From the IMG/VR virus record IMGVR_UViG_2609459790_000004: 30,774 nucleotides of DNA; one strand, given 5' to 3'. Below the pieces are notes generated by a model. The model did not search any database. It was not told where the DNA came from and saw nothing but the letters and a program-made list of their open reading frames with translations. The DNA comes from a virus. Lineage: Duplodnaviria > Heunggongvirae > Uroviricota > Caudoviricetes. Below, in pieces: positions 2,705 through 29,762 of the stretch. The position numbers and the translations under genes are program-made. The first letter of the stretch is position 1, and each line of letters begins with the position of its first letter.

Positions 2705-3676
2705 ATGATCCGCCCGTTCATCAAATGGGCAGGGGGTAAAACCCGTGTCCTCCCTGACCTGCTGCCGCATCTTCCTAAAGCCGACTGCCTGATCGAACCG
2801 TTCGTAGGCGGCGCATCGGTATTTCTGGCGACTGAATACCGCCGCTATGTGCTGGCTGATATCAACCCGGATCTTATTAACCTGTATCGGGAAGTCACCC
2901 GTTACCCGGACTTAGTGATCGATGCGGCCCGCGAACTGTTCAACAGCAAGAATAGCCCGCAGGGGTACAACGAAGTCCGAGCCGCGTTCAATAAGCAGGT
3001 AGGTACGGTAAAAAGCGGTGGGTTGCGTTATGGCGTAGAAATGGCGTGCATCATGCGCGCTGCTCAATTCCTGTATCTGAATCGCCACGGTTATAACGGC
3101 TTATGCCGCTACAGTCGTAAGACCGGCTTTAACGTGCCGTTTGGCAAGTATAAGAGCGTCTACTTTCCTGAAAATGAAATCCGCCTGTTTGCAGAAAAGG
3201 CCAACAATACAAAGGCAATATTTCTTTGCGCGCCGTTCCAGCGTTCTCTACAGGTCGTCACGGGTGGCGATGTTCTCGTTTACTGCGATCCGCCTTACCT
3301 GCCTGAAGGCAAAACAGCCGATTTTACCAAATACCACACCGAACCATTCACGGAAGACAACCACCGCCAGTTAGTCCAGGCACTGCTGGAAGTTAACCGT
3401 AAGCATGGCGTGAAGGTCGTCATTTCCAACAGCGACACCGAAGCCACCCGCGCGATTTATCAGCCCTTCAAGATGCACGAAATCAGCGTGCAACGTTCCA
3501 TCAGCACCGACAAAGACAACCGCCAGAAGGCCAAAGAAGTGATCGGCGTGCTGCCTGTCTGCGACTGCTGCGGGCGTTACGGCGGCGGTTGCCCTGATTG
3601 TGGCGCCGTGATGGGTGATGCGACTTACAACGCGATGGTTGCGGCGGGCACGTCTGACGATCTGGAGGCTTTTTAA
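2705..3676 (+). CDS. dam: orphan DNA adenine (N6) methyltransferase, Dam family, with Cys-rich C-terminal tail
   Basis: FIKWAGGK, EPFVGGASVF, LYLNRHGYNGLCRY and DPPY motifs match the Dam family; preferred start ATG 2705 (RBS ACGGAG) rather than track start 2651, which overlaps the upstream ORF. Confidence 0.9.
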   Translation: MIRPFIKWAGGKTRVLPDLLPHLPKADCLIEPFVGGASVFLATEYRRYVLADINPDLINLYREVTRYPDLVIDAARELFNSKNSPQGYNEVRAAFNKQVGTVKSGGLRYGVEMACIMRAAQFLYLNRHGYNGLCRYSRKTGFNVPFGKYKSVYFPENEIRLFAEKANNTKAIFLCAPFQRSLQVVTGGDVLVYCDPPYLPEGKTADFTKYHTEPFTEDNHRQLVQALLEVNRKHGVKVVISNSDTEATRAIYQPFKMHEISVQRSISTDKDNRQKAKEVIGVLPVCDCCGRYGGGCPDCGAVMGDATYNAMVAAGTSDDLEAF

Positions 3677-3855
3677 TGAATCTTATAGACGCCTGGATCG
3701 TTGAAATCATAAGCGTGAGTCGTGGCGAGATTGCGCCGTATTGGTTGGTTGAGGCGAAAGTAACAGCTTATGGAAGGGAGTCAATAACCACAATTCTGAA
3801 GAAATCAGAAGAGGAAGCCAAAGCCGTTAAAGTAGGGGATGTAGTTCAAATATGA
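3676..3855 (+). CDS. hypothetical 59-aa protein translationally coupled between dam and A
   Basis: Hand translation MNLIDAWIVEIISVSRGEIAPYWLVEAKVTAYGRESITTILKKSEEEAKAVKVGDVVQI; start overlaps Dam stop (TAATG), stop overlaps A start (ATGA); GGAGGC RBS. Below the 60-aa cutoff of the ORF track. Confidence 0.5.
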   Translation: MNLIDAWIVEIISVSRGEIAPYWLVEAKVTAYGRESITTILKKSEEEAKAVKVGDVVQI

Positions 3856-6209
3856 CCACGGAAACCCGTGGCCGTCGCGCCCCTTCTCCACCTCCACCGT
3901 ATCCGGGTAGCACTGACAATGCTATCCCTTACGCTTATGGGGGAAACAGACCATACCAGCCTATTGGCTTTGATGTAGCGCCGGGGCTGGATGGTTTCGA
4001 CTATCTCACGCCGGACGGCACGCGTAAGCATATTGCGTTCAGTGAACTGGTAGCGGAAGACGAAAAGCCGGAGCGCAGCAAGCTGCTGCGTCGCCGTCTG
4101 GCTTCACTTCCGCAGTATATCCGCCGCCACTTTGCCGCGAAGCTGGATGCACTGGAAGCGAAAGACCGCAAAGCGGCAGATCACTGGCTGGTTAATACCT
4201 TTGAGCGCCACGTATTAACGCGAATTGATAGCGTGAACAGTGTTTACCAGCCTGACACTATGATGCCCGGCATTCTGCTGCCAATCCGCGATCAGCTGTT
4301 CCGTATGCTCTGGGCAGGGAAGAAAGAGTTAAAAAGACTGGCTTATACGCTTGCCGATATCTTTACGAGCGAGTTTATACGCGAGTCCGATCACCAATTG
4401 GCACGCACCGGAGATCCTGAGTTCGCGGCGCTTTCTGGCTATGGCCGTATTGCGTCGCTGGCGGTGCATCTGAAAACGCCGATCCCCGGCTGGAGGGCGT
4501 ATTGCAATGAAGAACTGGAAGCGGAGGACGCGTTACGCGCGGTTCTTCGCCTTGAGTCACCGCAGTGGTGGTTAAACCGCCTGCGCCGTATCCATGCCCG
4601 GTGGCGTGAGCATTTGATGATCGCAGCGGGATACGTCCAGAAAAAATCTTCCCCATACAGTAGCGCCCCGTGCCTTACGGAATGGCTGGCCCAGAAAAAG
4701 GCTAACCGTGAATACCTCAAGGCTATGGAACTGGAAGATCAGGATACGGGCGAGCGCATTTCACTGATCGATAAAGTCGCTGGCAGTGTTGCCAATCCGG
4801 CCAACCGTCGCCGCGAACTCATGACGAGAATGCGCGGATTTGAAGATCTGGCGAAGCTGGAAGGGCTGGCCGGTGACTTCTACACGCTGACAGCACCTTC
4901 CCGTTACCACTCCATGCAGCATAACGGGCGCCGCAATAATAAATACTGTGGCGCGTCGCCGCGCGAGACGCAGCAATATCTTTGCAAAGTCTGGGCAAGA
5001 ACCCGCGCAGCGTGGAAGAGAAAAGGGATCCGCGTCTTTGGTTTCCGAGTGGTCGAACCGCACCACGATGCAACGCCACACTGGCATTTACTTCTTTTTA
5101 TGCGCCCCGAATGCGTCGAACAGGCGCGCGAAATCTTCCGTAAATATGCCCTGAAAGAAGACGGCAACGAACCGGGAGCGCAGGAAAACCGCTTTCAGGT
5201 TGTGCCGATCGACGATGCCCACGGCAGCGCAACCGGCTACATAGCGAAATACATTTCGAAGAATATCGACGGCTTCGCGCTGGATGGTGAGAAGGACGAC
5301 GAAACCGGGGAAGACCTGAAAGAAATGTCACTCCGCGTTAGCGCGTGGGCATCGCGCTGGGCTATTCGCCAGTTTCAGCAGATCGGCGGTGCGCCGGTCA
5401 CGGTATATCGGGAACTTCGCCGCCTGGGCGATCGCGAACTGGTGTTACACCCTGAACTGGAAACCGCCCGGCAGGCCGCTAACGGTGGCGAATGGGATAA
5501 CTACGTATTAGCCCAGGGTGGCCCGTTGGTTGAGCGCGATAAGCTGCGCATCCGTCTGAACTATGAAACCACTGAAAACGGTAACGCCTACGGCGATAAC
5601 GTCCAGCGAATCACTGGTATTTACTGCCCGATTACGGGCAATGACTCTTTGATCTTCACCCGCACCACTCAATACAAAATCGTGCCGAAGCGCCAGAGCG
5701 CTGACGGTGTGGCCGTTGACGTTGGTTTTTCAGGCGGCAACGCCGCCCCTCGGAGTTCTGTCAATAACTGTACGCGGGATCCCGCGACAGGTGCAGACGG
5801 TCTTGAACATGCCGATCACGAAGTGGGCGAGACGGTGAATTTTGATGCGCTTTCACGGCAGGAAAAGCGAGAACTGGCGCAGCGGCTTAGTGACGATGTG
5901 CGAAGTAAGCGTAAAAAACAGCCATCGGAACGGGAAGAGAGGGCCGGGCTATCCGTGAAAGAGCAGCAGATCAGTGAACTGCTGGCGCTGCGTGGGATTG
6001 ATGCCAGCGCCGGAATAGTCAGATCGATGATGGCTGGTGCGTCAGTGGCGTGCGGCGATCTTGTTATGACCGTACAAAATGGGCGGCTGGTATCGCGCAA
6101 CCGTGCAGCGTCGGGGCTGGATAAGCTGCCGTCGCAGGTAATGGCTGCGAAGAAAAAGACCAGTGACCTCGTGAACAGGATGAAGGCTGCGTTTTCGGGA
6201 CGGAAGTAG
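3852..6209 (+). CDS. A: rolling-circle replication initiation endonuclease (P2 gpA-like)
   Basis: 785-aa ORF with HWH..L and YIAKYISK motifs typical of P2 A-family initiators; position after the early operon. Confidence 0.9.
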   Translation: MTTETRGRRAPSPPPPYPGSTDNAIPYAYGGNRPYQPIGFDVAPGLDGFDYLTPDGTRKHIAFSELVAEDEKPERSKLLRRRLASLPQYIRRHFAAKLDALEAKDRKAADHWLVNTFERHVLTRIDSVNSVYQPDTMMPGILLPIRDQLFRMLWAGKKELKRLAYTLADIFTSEFIRESDHQLARTGDPEFAALSGYGRIASLAVHLKTPIPGWRAYCNEELEAEDALRAVLRLESPQWWLNRLRRIHARWREHLMIAAGYVQKKSSPYSSAPCLTEWLAQKKANREYLKAMELEDQDTGERISLIDKVAGSVANPANRRRELMTRMRGFEDLAKLEGLAGDFYTLTAPSRYHSMQHNGRRNNKYCGASPRETQQYLCKVWARTRAAWKRKGIRVFGFRVVEPHHDATPHWHLLLFMRPECVEQAREIFRKYALKEDGNEPGAQENRFQVVPIDDAHGSATGYIAKYISKNIDGFALDGEKDDETGEDLKEMSLRVSAWASRWAIRQFQQIGGAPVTVYRELRRLGDRELVLHPELETARQAANGGEWDNYVLAQGGPLVERDKLRIRLNYETTENGNAYGDNVQRITGIYCPITGNDSLIFTRTTQYKIVPKRQSADGVAVDVGFSGGNAAPRSSVNNCTRDPATGADGLEHADHEVGETVNFDALSRQEKRELAQRLSDDVRSKRKKQPSEREERAGLSVKEQQISELLALRGIDASAGIVRSMMAGASVACGDLVMTVQNGRLVSRNRAASGLDKLPSQVMAAKKKTSDLVNRMKAAFSGRK

Positions 6210-6261
6210 GGCGCCGATCGTCTATATTCTGATCGTCGATTAAACCAACGAGGTGATAGAT

Positions 6262-6516
6262 ATGGCAATTGAAGGACAACTCACAATGGAAGCCAGAAAA
6301 GCCCGGCCAGAAGCTAGCGTGCGATTTGAAAGGAACGGGCAGATTTTAACGATGTTCTGGGATTGGGAATATAAGGGCCAAAAGCTGAGTTACAGCAGGG
6401 CGGAACTGCGCCAGGACTATGAAAAAGATCCAGAAATGGTTGGGGCGGTTGTCGATTTTTGTGTGATCCAAATGGGTATTTTGGAAAAAGGAATTGACGA
6501 CGCCGCGCCGCGTTGA
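6262..6516 (+). CDS. hypothetical small protein (84 aa) between A and cos
   Basis: ATG 6262 with AGGTGA RBS; soluble, no recognisable motif; occupies the position of the P2 orf91/tin/old accessory locus. Confidence 0.5.
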   Translation: MAIEGQLTMEARKARPEASVRFERNGQILTMFWDWEYKGQKLSYSRAELRQDYEKDPEMVGAVVDFCVIQMGILEKGIDDAAPR

Positions 6517-6644
6517 AAATCAGTGCAAAATTTCGCGCAAAACCGCACAAATTTTATGATGGTGATTTTTCAGGAGCAGACCAGACGGGGCGGGCCTTCA
6601 GCTGGTCTGCACATTTGCACAAAAACGCGGGGTTTCTGCGTGCG

Positions 6645-6774: not shown

Positions 6775-6792
6775 AGCCCATGCCAGCGGGCT
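6775..6792 (-). terminator. candidate intrinsic terminator for the leftward P-Q operon
   Basis: 5-bp stem AGCCC/GGGCT with 8-nt loop; on the minus strand it is followed by a U-rich run (CUUUUCUUUUG); ~80 nt downstream of Q stop. Confidence 0.35.
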
Positions 6793-6873: not shown

Positions 6874-7923
6874 TCAGATCGCTGCCTGCAATAGTGCGTA
6901 AGGGTTGAAGCGCACCACGTCGATCCCCAGCCAGTCGTTTAACTCTTTCAGGCTTTCTTGTATCGGGGCCAGTTCGTTGATGGAAAACACCTTCGCCGCT
7001 TTCTCTACGTCGCCGAAGCCACCGGAGTTATTAGGCATTACCCCCATCAGAACGGGCGGCACACGGTGCGCGGCTAGCAGGTCGTCGCGGGTGGCGTCTT
7101 TGATGCCGGTAAACTCATCCTTCGCCGCCACCTGGCTGAACGGCATAATTTGCAGGCCGTCTTTTTTCCCGCCCGCCGCGTAGACAAACAGGTTTTTAAA
7201 AGCACCGTTGCCGCGTGCATCTTTCAGCGACTTCTTAAGCTTTTCCACATCGTTATTATTCGCTACCGGGTCAGTGAGGTAGACGATCACCCCCGCATGA
7301 CTGCCGTTAATGTAGTAGTTGCGGCGAAATACCGTTGCTTCACCGTTCAGCATGGCGCTTTGTAGCGCGGCCAGATATTCCGGCGCGCCGTAGATCTCCT
7401 GGTGCGGGCTGGGGTTCTTGATCTGGCAGACGCTGCCTGGTTCGAACGCGTGATCGTCAACGTAGCGCGGAACAAACCAGAATTGCGCCGGGTCTATGCC
7501 GCGCCGCGTATATTTTGCCTGGCTGTGCCGCAGCTCGATCGGCTGGCCGAGTCGGTTGCGGCGGCATTCCATGTAACAGTTACCGAAAATTAAATAATCC
7601 TGCACCCAGGCGGTGAACTCCTGCCGGGTCAATAGCGGGTGTGGTATGTAGCAACTGGCGATAACATTGCGTTTAAATATCAGCGGTGACTGGTGATAGG
7701 CGGCAACGTCGAACATGCGTGCAAGCCCGTAGGGGCTGATCGGTGGTTCATACCAGCGGCCATTGTTATGGCATTCGAGGCACTCCATAAGAGACGCGCG
7801 ATCGTTGACTGCGATCGGGTCGCCAAAGCTGAAAGATTCCACGCTTTCCAGCGGGGTGGCTGCGTTGCTGGCCGTGCTGGCTGGCGCAGCAGTTGGCGCC
7901 CTGAATTTCTTTTTGCCGCTCAA
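6874..7923 (-). CDS. Q: portal protein (P2 gpQ-like)
   Basis: 349-aa ORF adjacent to terminase; length and position match P2 Q; apparent TTG start immediately after P stop with GGAGGA RBS inside P. Confidence 0.85.
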   Translation of the reverse strand: MSGKKKFRAPTAAPASTASNAATPLESVESFSFGDPIAVNDRASLMECLECHNNGRWYEPPISPYGLARMFDVAAYHQSPLIFKRNVIASCYIPHPLLTRQEFTAWVQDYLIFGNCYMECRRNRLGQPIELRHSQAKYTRRGIDPAQFWFVPRYVDDHAFEPGSVCQIKNPSPHQEIYGAPEYLAALQSAMLNGEATVFRRNYYINGSHAGVIVYLTDPVANNNDVEKLKKSLKDARGNGAFKNLFVYAAGGKKDGLQIMPFSQVAAKDEFTGIKDATRDDLLAAHRVPPVLMGVMPNNSGGFGDVEKAAKVFSINELAPIQESLKELNDWLGIDVVRFNPYALLQAAI

Positions 7924-9636
7924 TTAAAACTCCTCCACAAAACTGCCGTTATCGCCGGTCACTTCCGCGCCGATCGGTTCGTTGTAAATGCCCTGCATAG
8001 TTGCCCATGCCAGATCGCCGTGATTGCTGCCACGGGCGCGATCGGACTGGTAGGTAATAACGCCGCCAGCGGTGACTTTACGCACGGTCATAAACGACTG
8101 TGCGAGATCCATCATTCCGGCGTCGAACTCAAAGCGCCCGGCGCGAATGACCATCAACATTTTGAGCACCATCGACCGCTTAAGAACCGGTGAATAGTTG
8201 TATTTAACCGCCTGCGGGAAGAACTTGATCACCAGTTGATAAACCGCATCGCCGATCCCCGTGCCGTCGATAGCAATGTGCTGCACGTTGTAGCGGGTGG
8301 TGATCTCTTTAATAAAATTGGCCTGCTCTTCGTACTCCATGCCGCGTAACTGGTGGCGCTCTACCGCGCGGAACTTACCACCCGGCACGGCTGGCGGGGC
8401 CAGCACAACCAGCCCGGCGCTGTCGCCTTTGCCGCTGCTGCCGTTGGGGTCATAGCTAACCCAGACAGGGCGATTACCCAGCGGGCGGGGTGCAAACGGG
8501 TTCCAGTCCGGCCAAGCGTCCGGCATGTAGCCATCAACGCCGCAGCCCAGAATTGCGTTGTAGTCGAAGGCGCGTTCCCCGGCTTTAACGAACATGCAGC
8601 CGTACAGGTTGGCGTATTCGTCGGGGGAGTTTTCGTTACGGATTTCATCGGTATCAACCAGATCGAAGCCGAGCTTCACGGCGTCTTCCAGCGTGACTAT
8701 CTGGCGCCAGATGTTATCCCCGCATAGCTTGCCGTTTTTCAGTGCCTTATAACTGGTGTCGATATCCACCCGATCGGAGCGGCGGCGGTTTTTATTGAAC
8801 TGATCGCCAGTCCAGAAAGGATAGGCTTCATGTTCTTCACTGGAAGGCGTCGAAAAGTAGGTGCGGCGCAGTCCTTTTTGTGTCGCCATGCCTGCGGCCA
8901 CTGAGCGCAGTTTGATGAAATTACTGATCCAGAAGGCTTCATCAAGGTACAGATCGCCGGTGTAGCTCTGGGCCGTCGCGGAGGAGGTGCCGAGAAAATA
9001 CAGGATCGCACCGTTGCTTAACTCAATGGCATCACCGCCCTTAAGTTCTACTCCTATTTCCCTTGCCAGCTTCTGAATGAACCTCTTGAACTGGAACGCC
9101 TGGGCGCGGCTGGCTGACAGGAATATCTGATTATTTCCGGTTTCCAGCGCACGCAACAGCGCTTCGCGGGCAAAGTACCAGGTGGCACCAATCTGGCGCG
9201 ATTTGAGTATAAAGCGGTTACGCCGGTTCCACTGTTTGAACCAGCGTTTTTGATGCTCGTATAGCGAATCAAAGACCAGGGCGCGAAGCTGGGTTATCTG
9301 TTCTTCGGTGAAATGGTTTTTCGGGGTCTTCGCCTTCTTCTCTTTCTCCTGGTCGCGTCGCTCATGCCGTTCAAAGCGGTCAAGCTGGCGCGCCAGCAGG
9401 TCAATTTCTTTGAAGTCCTTCGGGGTTTTGTCGTCCTTTTCCACCAGGCGCAGGTAACGAACGTGTGTGCGATCCTGCACCCGCTGCATGGGGGTGGCTT
9501 TATCCCATTCGTAGCGGCGGCGCCAACTGTAGATCGTGTTAATGCTCACCCCGATTTCCTTAGAAATCTGAGTGATGCTAAACGCCTGCCAGTAGAGGCT
9601 TTTGGCTTTTGTGCTGAGGTCTTCGGCTGTATTCAT
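7924..9636 (-). CDS. P: terminase large subunit (P2 gpP-like)
   Basis: 570-aa ORF; N-terminal helix-turn-helix region, Walker A-like ILKSRQIGAT and C-terminal nuclease region; ATG at 9636. Confidence 0.95.
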   Translation of the reverse strand: MNTAEDLSTKAKSLYWQAFSITQISKEIGVSINTIYSWRRRYEWDKATPMQRVQDRTHVRYLRLVEKDDKTPKDFKEIDLLARQLDRFERHERRDQEKEKKAKTPKNHFTEEQITQLRALVFDSLYEHQKRWFKQWNRRNRFILKSRQIGATWYFAREALLRALETGNNQIFLSASRAQAFQFKRFIQKLAREIGVELKGGDAIELSNGAILYFLGTSSATAQSYTGDLYLDEAFWISNFIKLRSVAAGMATQKGLRRTYFSTPSSEEHEAYPFWTGDQFNKNRRRSDRVDIDTSYKALKNGKLCGDNIWRQIVTLEDAVKLGFDLVDTDEIRNENSPDEYANLYGCMFVKAGERAFDYNAILGCGVDGYMPDAWPDWNPFAPRPLGNRPVWVSYDPNGSSGKGDSAGLVVLAPPAVPGGKFRAVERHQLRGMEYEEQANFIKEITTRYNVQHIAIDGTGIGDAVYQLVIKFFPQAVKYNYSPVLKRSMVLKMLMVIRAGRFEFDAGMMDLAQSFMTVRKVTAGGVITYQSDRARGSNHGDLAWATMQGIYNEPIGAEVTGDNGSFVEEF

Positions 9637-18540: not shown

Positions 18541-20023
18541 ATATTATGCCGTGCTAACCAATGTGGGCGCGGCGAAACTGGCAAATGCCACGGCATTGGG
18601 TGCGCAGGTTGAAATCACCCAGATGGCTGTAGGCGATGGTAACGGCGTGTTGCCGACGCCGAACCCGGCACAAACGGCGCTGGTTCATGAGCTGCGCCGC
18701 AAGCCGCTTAATAGTCTGAGCATTGACCCGAATAACGCCAACCAGATTATTGCCGAGCAGGTGATACCTGAAGACGAGGGCGGGTGGTGGATCCGTGAAA
18801 TCGGTTTATTCGATAAAGACGGCGATATGATTGCCGTAGCCAACTGTGCGGAAACGTATAAGCCGCAGTTACAGGAGGGAAGCGGGCGCGTACAGGTTGT
18901 ACGCATGATCCTGATTGTCAGCAGCACCGCTGCCGTAACGCTGAAAATTGACCCTTCGGTAGTTCTGGCAACCCGACAGTATGTTGATGATCAGATCATC
19001 CAGGTGAAAAGCTATGTTGATCAGAAAATGGCAGCGCATGTAGCTGCGGCTGATCCGCATAAACAATACGCACCAAAAGAAAGTCCCGCTCTTACTGGCA
19101 GGCCGACTGCGCCAACGGCGGAAGGCAAAGATAGTTCTACTCAAATTGCAAATACAGCTTTCGTTCAGGCTGCTATTGCTGCTTTGGTTGGCTCTTCGCC
19201 TGAAGCGCTGGATACGCTGAATGAACTTGCTGCGGCTTTGGGTAATGATCCTAACTTTGCTACCACCGTAACAAATTCACTCGCTGGAAAGATGGATAAA
19301 TCGGCAAATGGTTCAGACATAGAAAACGTTTCTGTTTTTCTACAAAACCTTGGTTTGGGAGATGCGAGCGGATACGTTGGTAGGCTGCTAAAAATACAGG
19401 TATTCACTGCCAGCGGGACAGTGACAAAAACGCCAGGCGCAAAAAAATGGCGAATTAAATGTCTCGGGGCGGGGGCCGGTAGTTCAGCTGCACCGGCAAC
19501 GGGTAGTAACGAGGTTTCCGTGAGTAACGGGGGCGGCGCAGGGGCATATGCTGAGGGCATTTATGACGTATCGTCAATAACAACGGCGTCAGTCGTCATC
19601 GGTTCCGGCGGTGCAGGAGGAACGGCGGGTTCAATATACGGCGCGGACGGCGGAACTAGCTCAGTTGGTTCGTTTATTTCATCGCCCGGTGGGAAAGCTG
19701 GATTACCCGCCGGACCGGCAACCCCACCATTTCAGCCCGTGGCCAATAGTAACAGCGATAGCTCGACTGGGTGGAATATTGTCGGCTCATCTGGAGCAGG
19801 GGCAGAACCAGCCGTAGCTGTTGCAAATAGCTATGCCGTTGGCTCGCGTGGTTCAAATAGTATATTTGGGGTAGGCGGAGCAACTCCTGCAATGAATAGC
19901 CCGGCAAATACCGGTGGTGGCTATGGTTCTGGAGCATCAGGCTGCTCGAATGGCCCATCTCAACCAACTAAATCAGGCGCAGCGGGACGCCCGGGAATCG
20001 TAATCATTGAGGAGCTGGCATAA
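18530..20023 (+). CDS. H: tail fibre protein (P2 gpH-like) with constant N-terminal part and invertible, glycine-rich variable C-terminal part (current orientation)
   Basis: N-terminus ..YYAVLTNVGAAKLANATALG..MAVGDGNG resembles P2 H; preferred start GTG 18530 (GGAG RBS 7 nt upstream), track start TTG 18509; the C-terminal ~220 aa lie inside the invertible segment. Confidence 0.85.
   Translation: MATKYYAVLTNVGAAKLANATALGAQVEITQMAVGDGNGVLPTPNPAQTALVHELRRKPLNSLSIDPNNANQIIAEQVIPEDEGGWWIREIGLFDKDGDMIAVANCAETYKPQLQEGSGRVQVVRMILIVSSTAAVTLKIDPSVVLATRQYVDDQIIQVKSYVDQKMAAHVAAADPHKQYAPKESPALTGRPTAPTAEGKDSSTQIANTAFVQAAIAALVGSSPEALDTLNELAAALGNDPNFATTVTNSLAGKMDKSANGSDIENVSVFLQNLGLGDASGYVGRLLKIQVFTASGTVTKTPGAKKWRIKCLGAGAGSSAAPATGSNEVSVSNGGGAGAYAEGIYDVSSITTASVVIGSGGAGGTAGSIYGADGGTSSVGSFISSPGGKAGLPAGPATPPFQPVANSNSDSSTGWNIVGSSGAGAEPAVAVANSYAVGSRGSNSIFGVGGATPAMNSPANTGGGYGSGASGCSNGPSQPTKSGAAGRPGIVIIEELA
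19338..19363. promoter_or_regulatory. hix/gix/cix-like 26-bp recombination site (left), inside gene H
   Basis: TTCTACAAAACC TT GGTTTGGGAGAT; 20-bp inverted repeat with the right site (19/20 identical); resembles the hixL consensus recalled from memory. Confidence 0.6.
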
Positions 20024-20220
20024 TGAGTAATTATGCGATAGTTAAAAATGGCGTCGTTGAAAATGTTGTTGTATGGGACGGGATTGGTAATATTTTCGAC
20101 AATTATATAGTGGTAAATATTGAAAATATAAATGCAGGAATAGGCTGGTTGTATGACGGAGAGGCTTTTACCCCTCCGTCTGAGCTTACGCCTACACCAC
20201 CGGGAAATCAGGCCAGTTAA
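20023..20220 (+). CDS. small hypothetical protein (65 aa) downstream of H in the expressed orientation; possible tail-fibre chaperone
   Basis: ATG overlapping H stop (TAATG); AT-rich; function inferred only from position. Confidence 0.45.
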   Translation: MSNYAIVKNGVVENVVVWDGIGNIFDNYIVVNIENINAGIGWLYDGEAFTPPSELTPTPPGNQAS

Positions 20221-20599
20221 TATCTGGCGCAGTGCTGGTATCAATTACCTGCACTGCGTCGATATAGTCCAGCACTGCGTTTAACCGCGTAGTTTCTGCA
20301 TCAGTCAGCATACGCCCTGCCAGCAATTTCATTTGCAGCACACTAATTGACTGCATTGCTGAATCTATCAGCGACTGTTTTTTCTGCTCGCCTCTCGCAA
20401 CTTCTTCTTCACGCGTCAAACCGATGGGCTCTTGCAATACCGGGTGACCATCATTTCCAGCGGAAATTATTTTTCCATTGGCCTGACCGTCAAACAGCCG
20501 GTGATATTCATCTGAGCTAATTTCTATAGCGTTATCTGGAATGTGGTTATTTAATCCGTCAATATAAAATGCACCATCTAAAAAATAATATTTCATCAT
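20192..20599 (-). CDS. tail fibre assembly protein (Tfa/gpG/Mu U-like), alternative-orientation copy
   Basis: N-terminus MMKYYFLDGAFY and C-terminus ..DAVQVIDTSTAPDINWPDFPVV match the conserved tail-fibre-assembly family ends; ATG overlaps the stop of the alternative fibre segment. Confidence 0.8.
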   Translation of the reverse strand: MMKYYFLDGAFYIDGLNNHIPDNAIEISSDEYHRLFDGQANGKIISAGNDGHPVLQEPIGLTREEEVARGEQKKQSLIDSAMQSISVLQMKLLAGRMLTDAETTRLNAVLDYIDAVQVIDTSTAPDINWPDFPVV

Positions 20600-20982
20600 T
20601 TACCCCACGCGAATACGATGCATCCTGCATTTTCTACTGCTGAAATTTGTGATCCGTTATCTACCCTGCATATTGCCTGAACGCCTGTTTTAGTGAGCGT
20701 ACTCAGTTGTATTGCCCATGTATTGGAAATTCCTGCACCCCAGGCATACGGATTACGCTCTATCACAACAGCGCCCAGGCCGAAAACATCAAAACTGGCA
20801 GGAAAAACAACGTCCGCAGCACCGCCAGAATTTGTATTCCCCAGTACCCACATGATTTTAAAACCCCCAGGGAATCGCGCCACACCGGGCATGTTTAGTG
20901 TTGATGCAAAACTGGACATATCAGGAATCTGATTTGCGCCGGTGCCGACGTTGCGGCGCGACGCTGTACCCAGATCTCCCAA
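20596..20982 (-). CDS. alternative tail-fibre C-terminal segment (silent in this orientation; fuses to H constant part after inversion)
   Basis: No ATG of its own (track start is TTG within the right hix site); after inversion at the 2-bp cores the H frame reads ..QNLGLGD-LGTASRRNVG.. continuously into this ORF. Confidence 0.7.
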   Translation of the reverse strand: MGDLGTASRRNVGTGANQIPDMSSFASTLNMPGVARFPGGFKIMWVLGNTNSGGAADVVFPASFDVFGLGAVVIERNPYAWGAGISNTWAIQLSTLTKTGVQAICRVDNGSQISAVENAGCIVFAWGK

Positions 20983-20999
20983 ACCAACGTTTTTGAAAA
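20974..20999. promoter_or_regulatory. hix/gix/cix-like 26-bp recombination site (right)
   Basis: ATCTCCCAAACC AA CGTTTTTGAAAA; inverted repeat of the left site; strong match to the hix consensus as recalled. Confidence 0.6.
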
Positions 21000-21053
21000 T
21001 GCATAATTATCAGTCAAATGGCATGATTTCTCATTTTAACGGAATGAAAAACC

Positions 21054-21635
21054 ATGCTTATTGGATATGTACGCGTATCAACAAATGACCAGAACACGGC
21101 TTTGCAACGTGATGCGCTGGAGCGGTCAGGATGTGAGCTTATTTTTGAAGATAAAATGAGCGGTAAAACAGCAGAAAGACCGGGGCTTAAAAAATTACTA
21201 AAGCGCCTTTCTCCAGAAGATACGCTTGTTGTCTGGAAGCTGGATCGTCTTGGGCGGAGTATGCGGAACTTGGTCATTCTGGTGGAGGAACTAAAGCAAC
21301 GTTCCGTGAACTTCCGCAGCCTGACTGACAGTATTGATACCTCAACACCAATGGGGCGTTTCTTTTTTCATGTTATGGGAGCACTGGCAGAGATGGAGAG
21401 AGAATTGATTGTCGAGCGTACGCGTGCAGGACTGGTGGCCGCTCGCGCGCAGGGAAGGATCGGCGGTAGACGTCCAAAACTAACACCAGAACAATGGGCG
21501 CAGGCGGGTAGGTTAATAGCGGCAGGGGAATCGCGCCGGAGGGTTGCCATAATTTATGATGTTGGGATATCTACGCTTTACAAAAAATTCCCAGCGACCA
21601 GAGATAAGAATTCCGGCACGCATGGCCGGTTATAA
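21054..21635 (+). CDS. serine recombinase, Hin/Gin/Cin/Pin-family DNA invertase
   Basis: 193-aa ORF; GYVRVSTNDQ (catalytic Ser region), TLVVWKLDRLGRS, MGRFFFHVMGALAEMERELIVERT and C-terminal HTH are near-identical in pattern to Hin/Gin. Confidence 0.95.
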   Translation: MLIGYVRVSTNDQNTALQRDALERSGCELIFEDKMSGKTAERPGLKKLLKRLSPEDTLVVWKLDRLGRSMRNLVILVEELKQRSVNFRSLTDSIDTSTPMGRFFFHVMGALAEMERELIVERTRAGLVAARAQGRIGGRRPKLTPEQWAQAGRLIAAGESRRRVAIIYDVGISTLYKKFPATRDKNSGTHGRL

Positions 21636-28912: not shown

Positions 28913-28933
28913 GCGGCCCCTAAATGGGGCCGT
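28913..28933. terminator. candidate bidirectional intrinsic terminator between convergent ogr and the membrane-protein gene
   Basis: Stem GCGGCCCC / GGGGCCGT with 5-nt loop; T-rich on the plus strand after the stem and U-rich after it on the minus strand. Confidence 0.45.
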
Positions 28934-28936
28934 TAT

Positions 28937-29584
28937 TTATTTCATGTTTATGGCTACAAACCTTGATCGTGTAAGGTTTTCACTTAAATATTGATCGCCA
29001 CTATCCCCGGCCTTTTTGCCCCAGATATCACACGAAGATTCACCGCCCTGAAAAACGTAGCCTTTGGTTAAAATGTCGTTAGTCACATAAATATGATCGA
29101 ATAAACCAGCCTTCCAAGCCCTGTTAGATTCCCCGTGATTGAAATAGCTGATGCATACGGACTGAACGGCACTTTTCGCCTGTAGTTCTTCTATGCTGTC
29201 AAAATTGAATGCAACTACTAAGGCTTTGTTGTAAATGACTGGTTTAACTGTGAGATTCAGATCTCCGAGCGCCTTGGATAAGGCAAGGGGAAGTTGATTA
29301 GTCGCTTCTGAAAAGTCGATAGTGGTTGTTAATTGTTCTTTGGGTTTAGCCGCGGGTTGTGTTTGTTCTGTGTTTGTCACTGCTGGCTGGGGTTTATTTT
29401 CAGCAACAGCTTTCGGCGCGACTGGTGCAACCATTGAACCTATGATTGCTGCCAAGAGGCACACCCCGAAGTAGATAGCAGATGAGCGCTTTCGATTTGG
29501 CATAAAAACCCATTTGGGATTGATTAGCCCAACCCAAAAAGCGATCCCAGCAACAGCGGCGATAACGGTGATGATTGTTTCCAT
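28937..29584 (-). CDS. hypothetical membrane protein (two N-terminal TM helices, Pro/Gln-rich linker, ~150-aa C-terminal domain with two Cys); prophage-end cargo
   Basis: 215-aa ORF, ATG 29584 with GGAGGG RBS; AT-rich relative to surrounding phage genes; no recognisable family. Confidence 0.6.
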   Translation of the reverse strand: METIITVIAAVAGIAFWVGLINPKWVFMPNRKRSSAIYFGVCLLAAIIGSMVAPVAPKAVAENKPQPAVTNTEQTQPAAKPKEQLTTTIDFSEATNQLPLALSKALGDLNLTVKPVIYNKALVVAFNFDSIEELQAKSAVQSVCISYFNHGESNRAWKAGLFDHIYVTNDILTKGYVFQGGESSCDIWGKKAGDSGDQYLSENLTRSRFVAINMK

Positions 29585-29762
29585 TGAGTACCCTCCGTAT
29601 TAAGGCGGGTATTATTGTCGATGGTGCTCAAAAACGGAACAGCCAAGCGCGGTGCGCCTGGCTGCTTCTTTGTCGAAGTGTAGTCAAAATGTAGACGAAG
29701 TTTAGAATAAATCCTTTTATTCCATTATGTTACTGGCTGGATTTCTTCACCATCCCTGTCTT

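Follow-up and report, generated by a model that had tools for sequence, protein, structure and literature searches.

A TTG codon directly after the terminase stop as the probable portal start in a P2-like Salmonella phage

Results

Terminase and portal genes at the junction

The window analyzed here is a 30,774-nt stretch of viral DNA (IMG/VR record IMGVR_UViG_2609459790_000004), to which all coordinates refer. Its minus strand carries a two-gene P-Q late operon. The first gene (9636..7924) encodes a 570-residue, P2 gpP-like terminase large subunit that matches the Pfam models Terminase_6N (9.4e-53), Terminase_6C (4.6e-33), and the gpP-like Terminase_5 (2.4e-17), and its homologue in phage SEN5 is annotated as terminase. 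The second gene (7923..6874) encodes a P2 gpQ-like portal protein, approximately 50% identical to P2 gpQ, that scored 63.2 bits against Pfam Phage_portal PF04860 (cut-off 39.1) and 244.2 bits against NCBIfam TIGR01540 portal_PBSX (cut-off 166.05) and belongs to a protein cluster of 397 member sequences. An earlier reading made from the sequence alone (the sequence-only reading) had described the 349-residue product as being of the expected size, and this description agrees with the 344 residues of P2 gpQ and with the lengths of the homologues, which mostly span 335 to 367 residues. The P-Q pair runs divergently from the genes for the GPO scaffold and the P2-family capsid, which lie on the plus strand from ∼9.8 kb. 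The protein models, the gene neighborhood, and the basic N-terminus described below, which are the features that can be tested by sequence, all agree with a P2-type (gpQ/PBSX-family) portal. When solved structures were searched by sequence for a portal homologue whose N-terminal residues are defined, there were no hits. Approximately 80 nt past the portal stop, a pattern scan identified a terminator-like hairpin with a T-rich tail (6775..6792, minus strand; a consensus match only), placed like the P2 terminator tQ, which the P2 record annotates just past Q.

At the junction, the minus strand reads GTG GAG GAG TTT TAA through the end of the terminase gene and continues with TTG AGC GGC AAA AAG AAA TTC AGG. 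The terminase stop codon TAA (7926..7924) is followed by T, where the portal initiation codon TTG (7923..7921) begins, with 0 nt between the two codons. The terminase and portal open reading frames share one reading frame with this TAA as their sole separator, and the stop also closes the portal frame upstream, so that the TTG is the first possible portal start. No other codon between the in-frame TAA and codon 28 of the portal gene could serve as a start. The earlier statement that no ATG or GTG is available in frame near the start thus holds for codons 2 to 27 but not farther downstream, where we found GTG at codon 28 (7842..7840) and ATG at codons 46 (7788..7786) and 70.

A Shine-Dalgarno (SD) sequence, GGAGGAG (7936..7930), lies within the Val-Glu-Glu codons of the terminase gene. 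The GGAGGA ribosome-binding site that had been reported inside the 3' end of P was confirmed at 7936..7931, in the last terminase codons, with a spacer of 7 nt to the TTG. The calculated duplex with the 3' end of 16S rRNA was −9.3 kcal/mol for the TTG, −3.3 kcal/mol for GTG28, and +0.3 kcal/mol for ATG46. A duplex as strong as −9.3 kcal/mol occurred in only 0.73% of the 20-mers of the minus strand of the window, and this rarity argues that the TTG and its SD did not come together by chance. The value for GTG28 is ordinary for the strand, being reached by approximately one-fifth of random 20-mers. The site therefore has the components of a canonical SD-led site with a UUG start, namely a start codon, an SD located 5 to 10 nt upstream, and a position homologous to the starts of its orthologues.

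Comparison of P-Q junctions

The alignment of P-Q junctions across related phages, which the sequence-only reading had proposed as a check, was carried out with 153 unique junctions, and in 140 of them the portal start was located 4 nt or less from the terminase stop. The start codons of these 140 junctions were ATG in 123 cases, GTG in 9, and TTG in 8, and the start offsets were −1 (82 junctions), −4 (23), +2 (14), 0 (14), +1 (5), +3 (1), and +4 (1). P and Q occupied the same frame in 15 of the 140. Besides the window clade, a TTG start at the junction was present in Kosakonia (L023) and Yokenella (L033). The nearest relatives read TAA AC GTG AGC (L013) or TAA CC ATG AGC (L014 and L015), and the TTG at 7923 aligned with the xTG AGC of L013, L015, L095, L023, L033, and P2, the AGC serine codon being conserved. 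Within the SEN4 clade, the TTG and its flanks were identical in all 15 loci, which were assembled independently from Salmonella, Enterobacter, and metagenomes. This clade is shallow, with 1.2 to 2.4% divergence across P-Q, and we rejected the conservation of the TTG within it as a sign of selection, this divergence being too small to be informative.

Codon usage in the terminase tail points to selection on the SD. The glutamate codons in the tails of the relatives were GAG in 144 cases and GAA in 7, whereas in the gene body GAG made up 48% (p = 6.6e-37); this excess indicates, from sequence comparison, that synonymous sites are under selection for the SD. A stronger SD in junction lineages with non-ATG starts was not supported (Mann-Whitney p = 0.38), on the basis of which we rejected the general rule that a stronger SD offsets a non-ATG start. 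The unusually strong SD at the P-Q junction was confined to the window clade; because lineages showed no general SD difference, the notion that the SD compensates for the TTG rests on one lineage.

The window was 99.6% identical in nucleotide sequence across the junction to the plaque-forming phages SEN4 and SEN5 (Peduoviridae, Senquatrovirus), and the 66-nt junction of their portal gene, SEN5_1 (KT630646.2 and NC_028701.2), was identical to that of the window. Both the GenBank (KT630646) and the RefSeq (NC_028701) records of SEN5 already annotate the portal coding sequence from the same TTG, abutting the terminase coding sequence. The window differs from SEN5 in being in prophage order, beginning in the integrase gene, and in the content of several cargo regions (in one of them, a segment of ∼2.4 kb that SEN5 carries between gene A and the portal gene is replaced by ∼0.3 kb in the window); at the junction itself there is no difference. 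Phage P2 (NC_001895) resembles the window in having a P then Q late operon divergent from the O operon, an SD inside the terminase tail (GGAG, the window motif GGAGGAG being longer), and a portal start at the terminase stop. In contrast to the window, the P2 ATG overlaps the stop by 1 nt (TGATG AGC), which places its portal and terminase genes in different frames.

The basic N-terminus and its predicted cleavage

Translation from the TTG yields a basic N-terminal extension (codons 1 to 31, 7923..7831, minus strand) composed of MSGKKKFR and a linker rich in Ala, Pro, Thr, and Ser, a predicted propeptide. The window sequence, MSGKKKFR...ESFSFGDP, follows the family pattern of MS, a Lys/Arg run, a linker of ∼29 residues, and FxFGDP; P2 has MSKKKGK, a linker, and EAFTFGEP. 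At least three Lys or Arg residues were present within residues 2 to 10 in 94 of the 113 unique N-termini of relatives, for which the median length of the extension was 29 residues versus 30 in the window. The length of the extension varies from 13 to 40 residues, yet it stays in frame across the 140 junctions. Even in the 13 relatives in which the portal gene is detached from the terminase gene by ∼135 to 800 nt, the extension is still encoded and has ∼29 residues in most.

The portal of the P2 virion is N-terminally cleaved, such that its first 26 residues are absent and the cryo-EM model begins at residue 27 (P2 cryo-EM preprint). Alignment of the gpQ sequences places the P2 position F26|T27 at F31|S32 of the window protein. 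By analogy, we predict that the basic extension is removed during head maturation in the window phage, with cleavage near F31|S32. A mature virion N-terminus near S32, only four residues past GTG28, cannot distinguish initiation at TTG (codon 1) from initiation at GTG (codon 28). The sequence-only reading had proposed N-terminal proteomics of the virion portal as a check and an N-terminus mapping to a different position as the refutation; both the test and the refutation criterion are wrong, since cleavage of the P2 virion portal leads one to expect an N-terminus at a different position whatever the start codon. Removal of the gpQ N-terminus during head maturation, reported for P2 and predicted here, would make virion proteomics unfit to validate the portal starts of this family, and the practical value of the present analysis is a caution against using it for this purpose in P2-like phages.

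Geometry and predicted RNA structure of the junction

The stop-start distance of 0 nt lies within the range for termination-reinitiation in Escherichia coli (PMC10666635). P and Q are co-directional and separated by the short distance expected of a coupled pair (0 nt here; −4 to +4 nt in 140 of 153 junctions). Folding of the 110-nt junction gave −28.4 kcal/mol in comparison to a shuffled mean of −30.8 kcal/mol (z = +0.83), so that no stable RNA structure masking the SD or the start was predicted, and the centroid structure contained one weak A/U-rich hairpin only. On the basis of this z score, we rejected an occluding hairpin, as in RNA-unfolding models, as the basis of coupling. The tight coupling that had been suggested fits the geometry, namely the 0-nt distance here and the short distance conserved in the family, but is supported by no predicted occluding structure. 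From the sequence arrangement, translational coupling of terminase and portal can reasonably be inferred; the strong SD could also drive independent initiation of the portal gene.

Discussion

The comparative evidence, the SD, and the SEN5 annotation bear out the placement of the portal start directly after the terminase stop, and they strongly support the TTG at 7923 as the real start. The best explanation of the sequence data, to which we assign a probability of roughly 0.9, is that the site is the ordinary portal translation start of a P2-like Salmonella phage of the SEN4/5 type (Senquatrovirus). In this explanation, the terminase and portal genes would be co-transcribed as a two-gene late operon, and ribosomes would start the portal at the UUG (7923..7921) with initiator tRNA, guided by the GGAGGAG in the last codons of the terminase. 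Ribosomes ending the terminase can probably also re-initiate at this UUG, because it stands directly after the terminase UAA. The product would be a 349-residue precursor from which the ∼31-residue basic segment is most likely cut by the scaffold protease, a gpO homologue, as in P2. Compared with the TAA NN ATG/GTG AGC arrangement of the nearest relatives, the lineage has lost the 2-nt spacer, and its start codon begins with T rather than A or G. TTG is among the canonical start codons of bacteria and opens ∼3% of E. coli genes. The earlier designation of a low-efficiency start reflects general knowledge, with UUG efficiencies of 10 to 100% of that of AUG. The UUG probably lowers portal output somewhat, and the phage could tolerate this decrease, since each head requires just 12 copies.

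Initiation farther downstream, at GTG28 or ATG46, would turn the first 27 codons into an untranslated spacer and make the TTG and its SD a coincidence. We consider this very unlikely, although the tblastn alignments with distant P2-like portals start at residues 26 to 30 of the query, so that the strongly conserved portal core starts near codon 28, and the mature P2 portal begins near the same position. The weak SD at GTG28 and the lack of one at ATG46 argue against it, and an internal start would delete the conserved MS and K/R-rich N-terminus that remains in frame across the family. Moreover, in most relatives the codon corresponding to codon 28 is not a start codon, and the annotated start of P2, located at the terminase stop, sets the numbering in which the virion portal comprises residue 27 onward. 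The SD strengths and the conserved basic N-terminus encoded upstream led us to reject GTG28, ATG46, and ATG70 as the portal start; some minor extra initiation at GTG28 may occur. There is a similarly small chance that the TTG is a defect, arising by sequencing error or by mutation of an ATG or GTG in a decaying prophage, with a portal that is poorly expressed or non-functional. Of the 47 genes annotated in SEN5, the portal gene alone starts with TTG, the nearest relatives use ATG or GTG, and the titers of SEN4 and SEN5 are low at about 7-9 × 10^3 PFU/ml (PMC5261728). Other phages of that study had similarly low titers, however, and SEN4 and SEN5 form plaques and were isolated as particles of the myovirus type (PMC5261728). 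The size of the portal protein cluster and the recurrence of this canonical start codon at the junction in two other genera also oppose a defect, and the sharing of the TTG and its flanks by 15 independent loci from different hosts and metagenomes, along with the viability of SEN4 and SEN5, led us to reject a sequencing error or pseudogene.

The single stop codon between two in-frame genes might also be viewed as a programmed read-through site that generates a terminase-portal fusion, besides or in place of separate initiation. A fused open reading frame can exist in an assembly, as P and Q are joined by a 1-nt insertion in a Xenorhabdus locus (L075). Because that fusion corresponds to a 1-nt change in homopolymer length relative to L071, it probably reflects an error or a defect. 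The same-frame arrangement is not conserved, the portal gene has a strong SD and a start codon of its own that are under selection, and the RNA folding predicts no stimulatory structure (z = +0.83). In addition, TAA followed by T is not a leaky context; UAA-U is the most efficient termination context in E. coli. Read-through is therefore extremely improbable, and we rejected the fusion as a designed feature on the basis of the 15 of 140 in-frame junctions and the TAA-T stop. Only slightly less remote is a more speculative proposal, in which a small read-through fraction places a fusion at the packaging vertex or the portal:terminase ratio has been retuned in the Senquatrovirus lineage. The fusion is disfavored by the UAA-U stop, the unconserved frame, and the dedicated SD. 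As a milder alternative, the weak UUG, the 0-nt spacer, and the unusually strong SD would render portal synthesis largely dependent on reinitiation.

We conclude that the portal TTG start is already known as an ordinary annotated variant of a family-wide junction. The finding has little import beyond annotation, the gene callers and the SEN4/5 depositors having placed the portal start correctly. More broadly, P2-like phages conserve the P-Q junction as a unit, with an SD in the terminase tail and a portal start no more than 4 nt from the stop, for which ATG, GTG, and TTG are interchangeable. This junction resembles the gene pairs coupled by termination-reinitiation (Huber et al. 2019, 2023), which are co-directional with stop-start distances of −4 to +4 nt, have an SD in the 3' end of the upstream gene, and encode products of one machine, here the portal-terminase packaging motor; the 0-nt distance and TTG start of the window are both minority variants. 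Gene VII of phage f1 (Ivey-Hoyle and Steege 1989, cited in PMC12548453) reportedly likewise has an initiation site that abuts the end of the upstream gene, a weak site made functional by coupling. The f1 site is reported to have no functional SD and to be intrinsically defective, whereas the SD in the window is very strong, so that the window start is probably competent alone.

Anatomy of the terminase-portal junction

On the minus strand, the terminase ORF (9636..7924, 570 aa) ends with TAA at 7926..7924 and the portal ORF (7923..6874, 349 aa) opens with TTG at 7923..7921, the junction reading ...GGC AGT TTT GTG GAG GAG TTT TAA TTG AGC GGC AAA AAG AAA TTC AGG.... Matches to Pfam Terminase_6N, Terminase_6C, and Terminase_5 identify the first ORF as a large terminase of the P2 gpP type; the second is a portal, matching Pfam Phage_portal and NCBIfam TIGR01540 portal_PBSX, each above its cut-off. 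Their neighbors are genes for the P2-type scaffold protein (GPO), the major capsid protein, and replication protein A. The portal falls in a protein cluster of 397 member sequences. Because both ORFs lie in one reading frame, the TAA closes the portal frame and the TTG is the earliest possible start. The Shine-Dalgarno (SD) sequence, GGAGGA at 7936..7931 or GGAGGAG at 7936..7930, is located 7 nt 5' of the TTG within the final terminase codons (Val-Glu-Glu-Phe), confirming the ribosome-binding site that the sequence-only reading had placed inside the terminase 3' end. The further claim that no ATG or GTG is available nearby holds for codons 2-27 only; an in-frame GTG occurs at portal codon 28 (GTG28; 7842..7840, minus strand) and an in-frame ATG at codon 46 (ATG46).

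Evidence for the TTG start

The strength of each candidate SD was calculated as the duplex energy of the 20 nt upstream of the start with the 16S 3' end, giving -9.3, -3.3, and +0.3 kcal/mol for TTG, GTG28, and ATG46, respectively; only 0.73% of 20-mers on the same strand reach -9.3 kcal/mol or better. Over the final five codons of the relatives' terminase genes, Glu codons are GAG in 144 cases and GAA in 7, compared to 48% GAG in the gene body (binomial p = 6.6e-37). This excess of GAG over GAA shows that the SD embedded at the junction of the terminase (P) and portal (Q) genes is maintained as a signal rather than being a coding accident.

Start positions were compared across 167 related loci, drawn from bacterial genomes and viral contigs as well as exact-protein look-ups, by locating the terminase stop and candidate portal starts in each. 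At 140 of 153 unique junctions, a start-capable codon lies no more than 4 nt from the terminase stop, in most cases preceded at 5-12 nt by a GGAG-type SD. The offsets from the base after the stop were -1 (82), -4 (23), +2 (14), 0 (14), +1 (5), +3 (1), and +4 (1), and the start codons were ATG (123), GTG (9), and TTG (8). Six of the TTG junctions are variants of the clade that shares the window's TAATTG junction and includes phages SEN4 and SEN5; the other two are from Kosakonia (L023) and Yokenella (L033). Outside this clade, the closest loci read TAA AC GTG AGC (L013, portal 76% identical) and TAA CC ATG AGC (L014 and L015), and that of P2 reads TGATG AGC AAG AAA AAA. On the basis of this alignment, TAA TTG AGC GGC AAA AAG of the window represents the same start without the 2-nt spacer and with T as its first base. 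At the remaining 13 junctions the portal begins ∼135-800 nt past the terminase stop at a start of its own (in most cases an SD-preceded ATG) and still carries an N-terminal extension, ∼29 aa long in most; the extension thus belongs to the protein whatever the junction. The extra DNA at these 13 junctions is possibly an inserted gene. The interval spans ∼660-800 nt in L016, L166, L129, L098-L100, L149, L070, L067, and L064 and ∼135-180 nt in L039 and L073.

Portal homologues found by protein search begin with Met, usually Ser, a Lys/Arg run, and an Ala/Pro/Thr-rich linker, followed by the conserved EAF(S/T)FGDP. When the N-termini of the relatives were re-derived from DNA rather than taken from gene-caller output (113 unique), 94 had at least three Lys/Arg within residues 2-10, with a mean of 3.7 versus 0.67 in residues 11-19; the second residue was Ser in 58, and the extension before the conserved Phe had a median of 29 aa (interquartile range 26-30). 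The window portal, with MSGKKKFR and a 30-aa extension, fits this pattern exactly, but only when translated from the TTG. SD strength, SD selection, N-terminal conservation, and start-position homology are in strong agreement and argue that TTG 7923..7921, next to the terminase stop as originally proposed, is the real portal start.

Translation from GTG28 or ATG46 is contradicted by three of these lines, namely SD strength, N-terminal conservation, and start-position homology. Three observations make it unlikely that the in-frame TAA is a programmed read-through site: P and Q are in frame at only 15 of the 140 junctions, the portal has a dedicated SD and start codon, and the TAA is followed by T, a context of strong termination. 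A fused P-Q ORF was found in one relative, L075 (2377-2561, Xenorhabdus bakwenae SF857 chromosome), where one additional T in a T-run (GAGGTCTTTTTAATGAGC versus GAGGTCTTTTAATGAGC in its close relative L071) removes the terminase stop; this is probably an artifact of assembly or homopolymer sequencing, or else a genuine frameshift or defect.

Initiation and possible coupling

Most likely, the strong SD directs initiation at the UUG, and terminating ribosomes would also be well placed for re-initiation at the 0-nt stop-start distance. In Escherichia coli reporters, reinitiation falls by 5-70% when a -1 overlap is changed to +2 nt and by 80-100% at +38 nt (PMC10666635). Because the 0-nt distance falls where reinitiation works in these reporters, the suggested terminase-portal translational coupling is plausible, and that the tight junction is conserved across the family argues for coupling being of some importance. 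The RNA-unfolding form of coupling is not supported, since the fold of the 110-nt junction is no more stable than those of shuffled sequences (z = +0.83). UUG is one of three canonical starts, is used by ∼3% of E. coli genes, and such starts yield 10-100% of the AUG output (Hecht et al.); the low efficiency attributed to this start is a fair expectation. The SD of the window clade is stronger than the family mean (-9.3 versus -6.3 kcal/mol) and could offset the UUG; no trend toward a stronger SD was seen in other non-ATG lineages (p = 0.38).

According to the P2 record, P and Q of that phage make up a single late operon whose transcription start is mapped and whose terminator is tQ. The window shares this layout, down to a terminator-like hairpin and T-rich tail (6775-6792, minus strand) ∼80 nt 3' of the portal stop, placed like tQ. 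The hairpin was predicted by pattern, and matches to this pattern in the region do not outnumber shuffle expectation.

Predicted N-terminal processing

The portal of P2 virions is N-terminally cleaved and lacks its first 26 residues, and this gpQ boundary, F26|T27, aligns with F31|S32 of the window portal. If homologous cleavage occurs in the window phage, the N-terminus of the virion portal would lie near S32, four residues beyond GTG28, and would map to a different position under either start; N-terminal proteomics of the virion portal, the proposed check, therefore cannot confirm or refute the TTG. The N-terminal segment that carries the conserved basic motif of gpQ-type portals (7831-7923 in the window, minus strand) is missing from the P2 virion portal.

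Relation to SEN4 and SEN5

The junction region is 99.6% identical to that of Salmonella phages SEN4 and SEN5 (Peduoviridae, Senquatrovirus), which were isolated as plaque-forming particles of myovirus morphology and annotated by RAST with manual correction (PMC5261728). The SEN5 GenBank and RefSeq records start the portal CDS at the same TTG, directly adjoining the terminase CDS; it is the sole TTG among 47 annotated SEN5 genes (41 ATG, 5 GTG). The feature is of a well-known kind, a UUG start led by an SD where two operon genes directly abut, in a P2-type portal gene; already annotated for an essentially identical phage, it is unsurprising to a specialist. Useful by-products are a description of the P-Q junction across the family and the caution on N-terminal processing.

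The TAATTG junction is identical in 15 of 15 clade loci (Salmonella and Enterobacter genomes, Logan, ENA, and IMG/VR assemblies, and the window). A sequencing error is ruled out by this shared junction, and a dead portal gene by the junction and SEN4/5 viability taken together. The clade is shallow (1.2-2.4% divergence over P-Q), and conservation of TTG within it would by itself be no evidence of selection for TTG.

In contrast to SEN5, the window is in prophage order, beginning inside the integrase gene, and differs in several cargo blocks (6221-6544; 1455-1471, 3590-3992, 19016-21543, and 28913-29655), as well as in the region of the tail-fibre C-terminus and assembly genes. SEN5 has ∼2.4 kb between gene A and the portal, including a DNA methyltransferase, whereas the window has ∼0.3 kb carrying an 87-aa ORF (6253-6516). 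Within 66 nt around the clade junction the sole change is one synonymous AAG-to-AAA substitution; the IMG/VR contigs L092 and L093 have GGCAAAAAAAAATTC, a synonymous change that yields a nine-A run, and so a long homopolymer, right after the start codon, in place of GGCAAAAAGAAATTC in the window.
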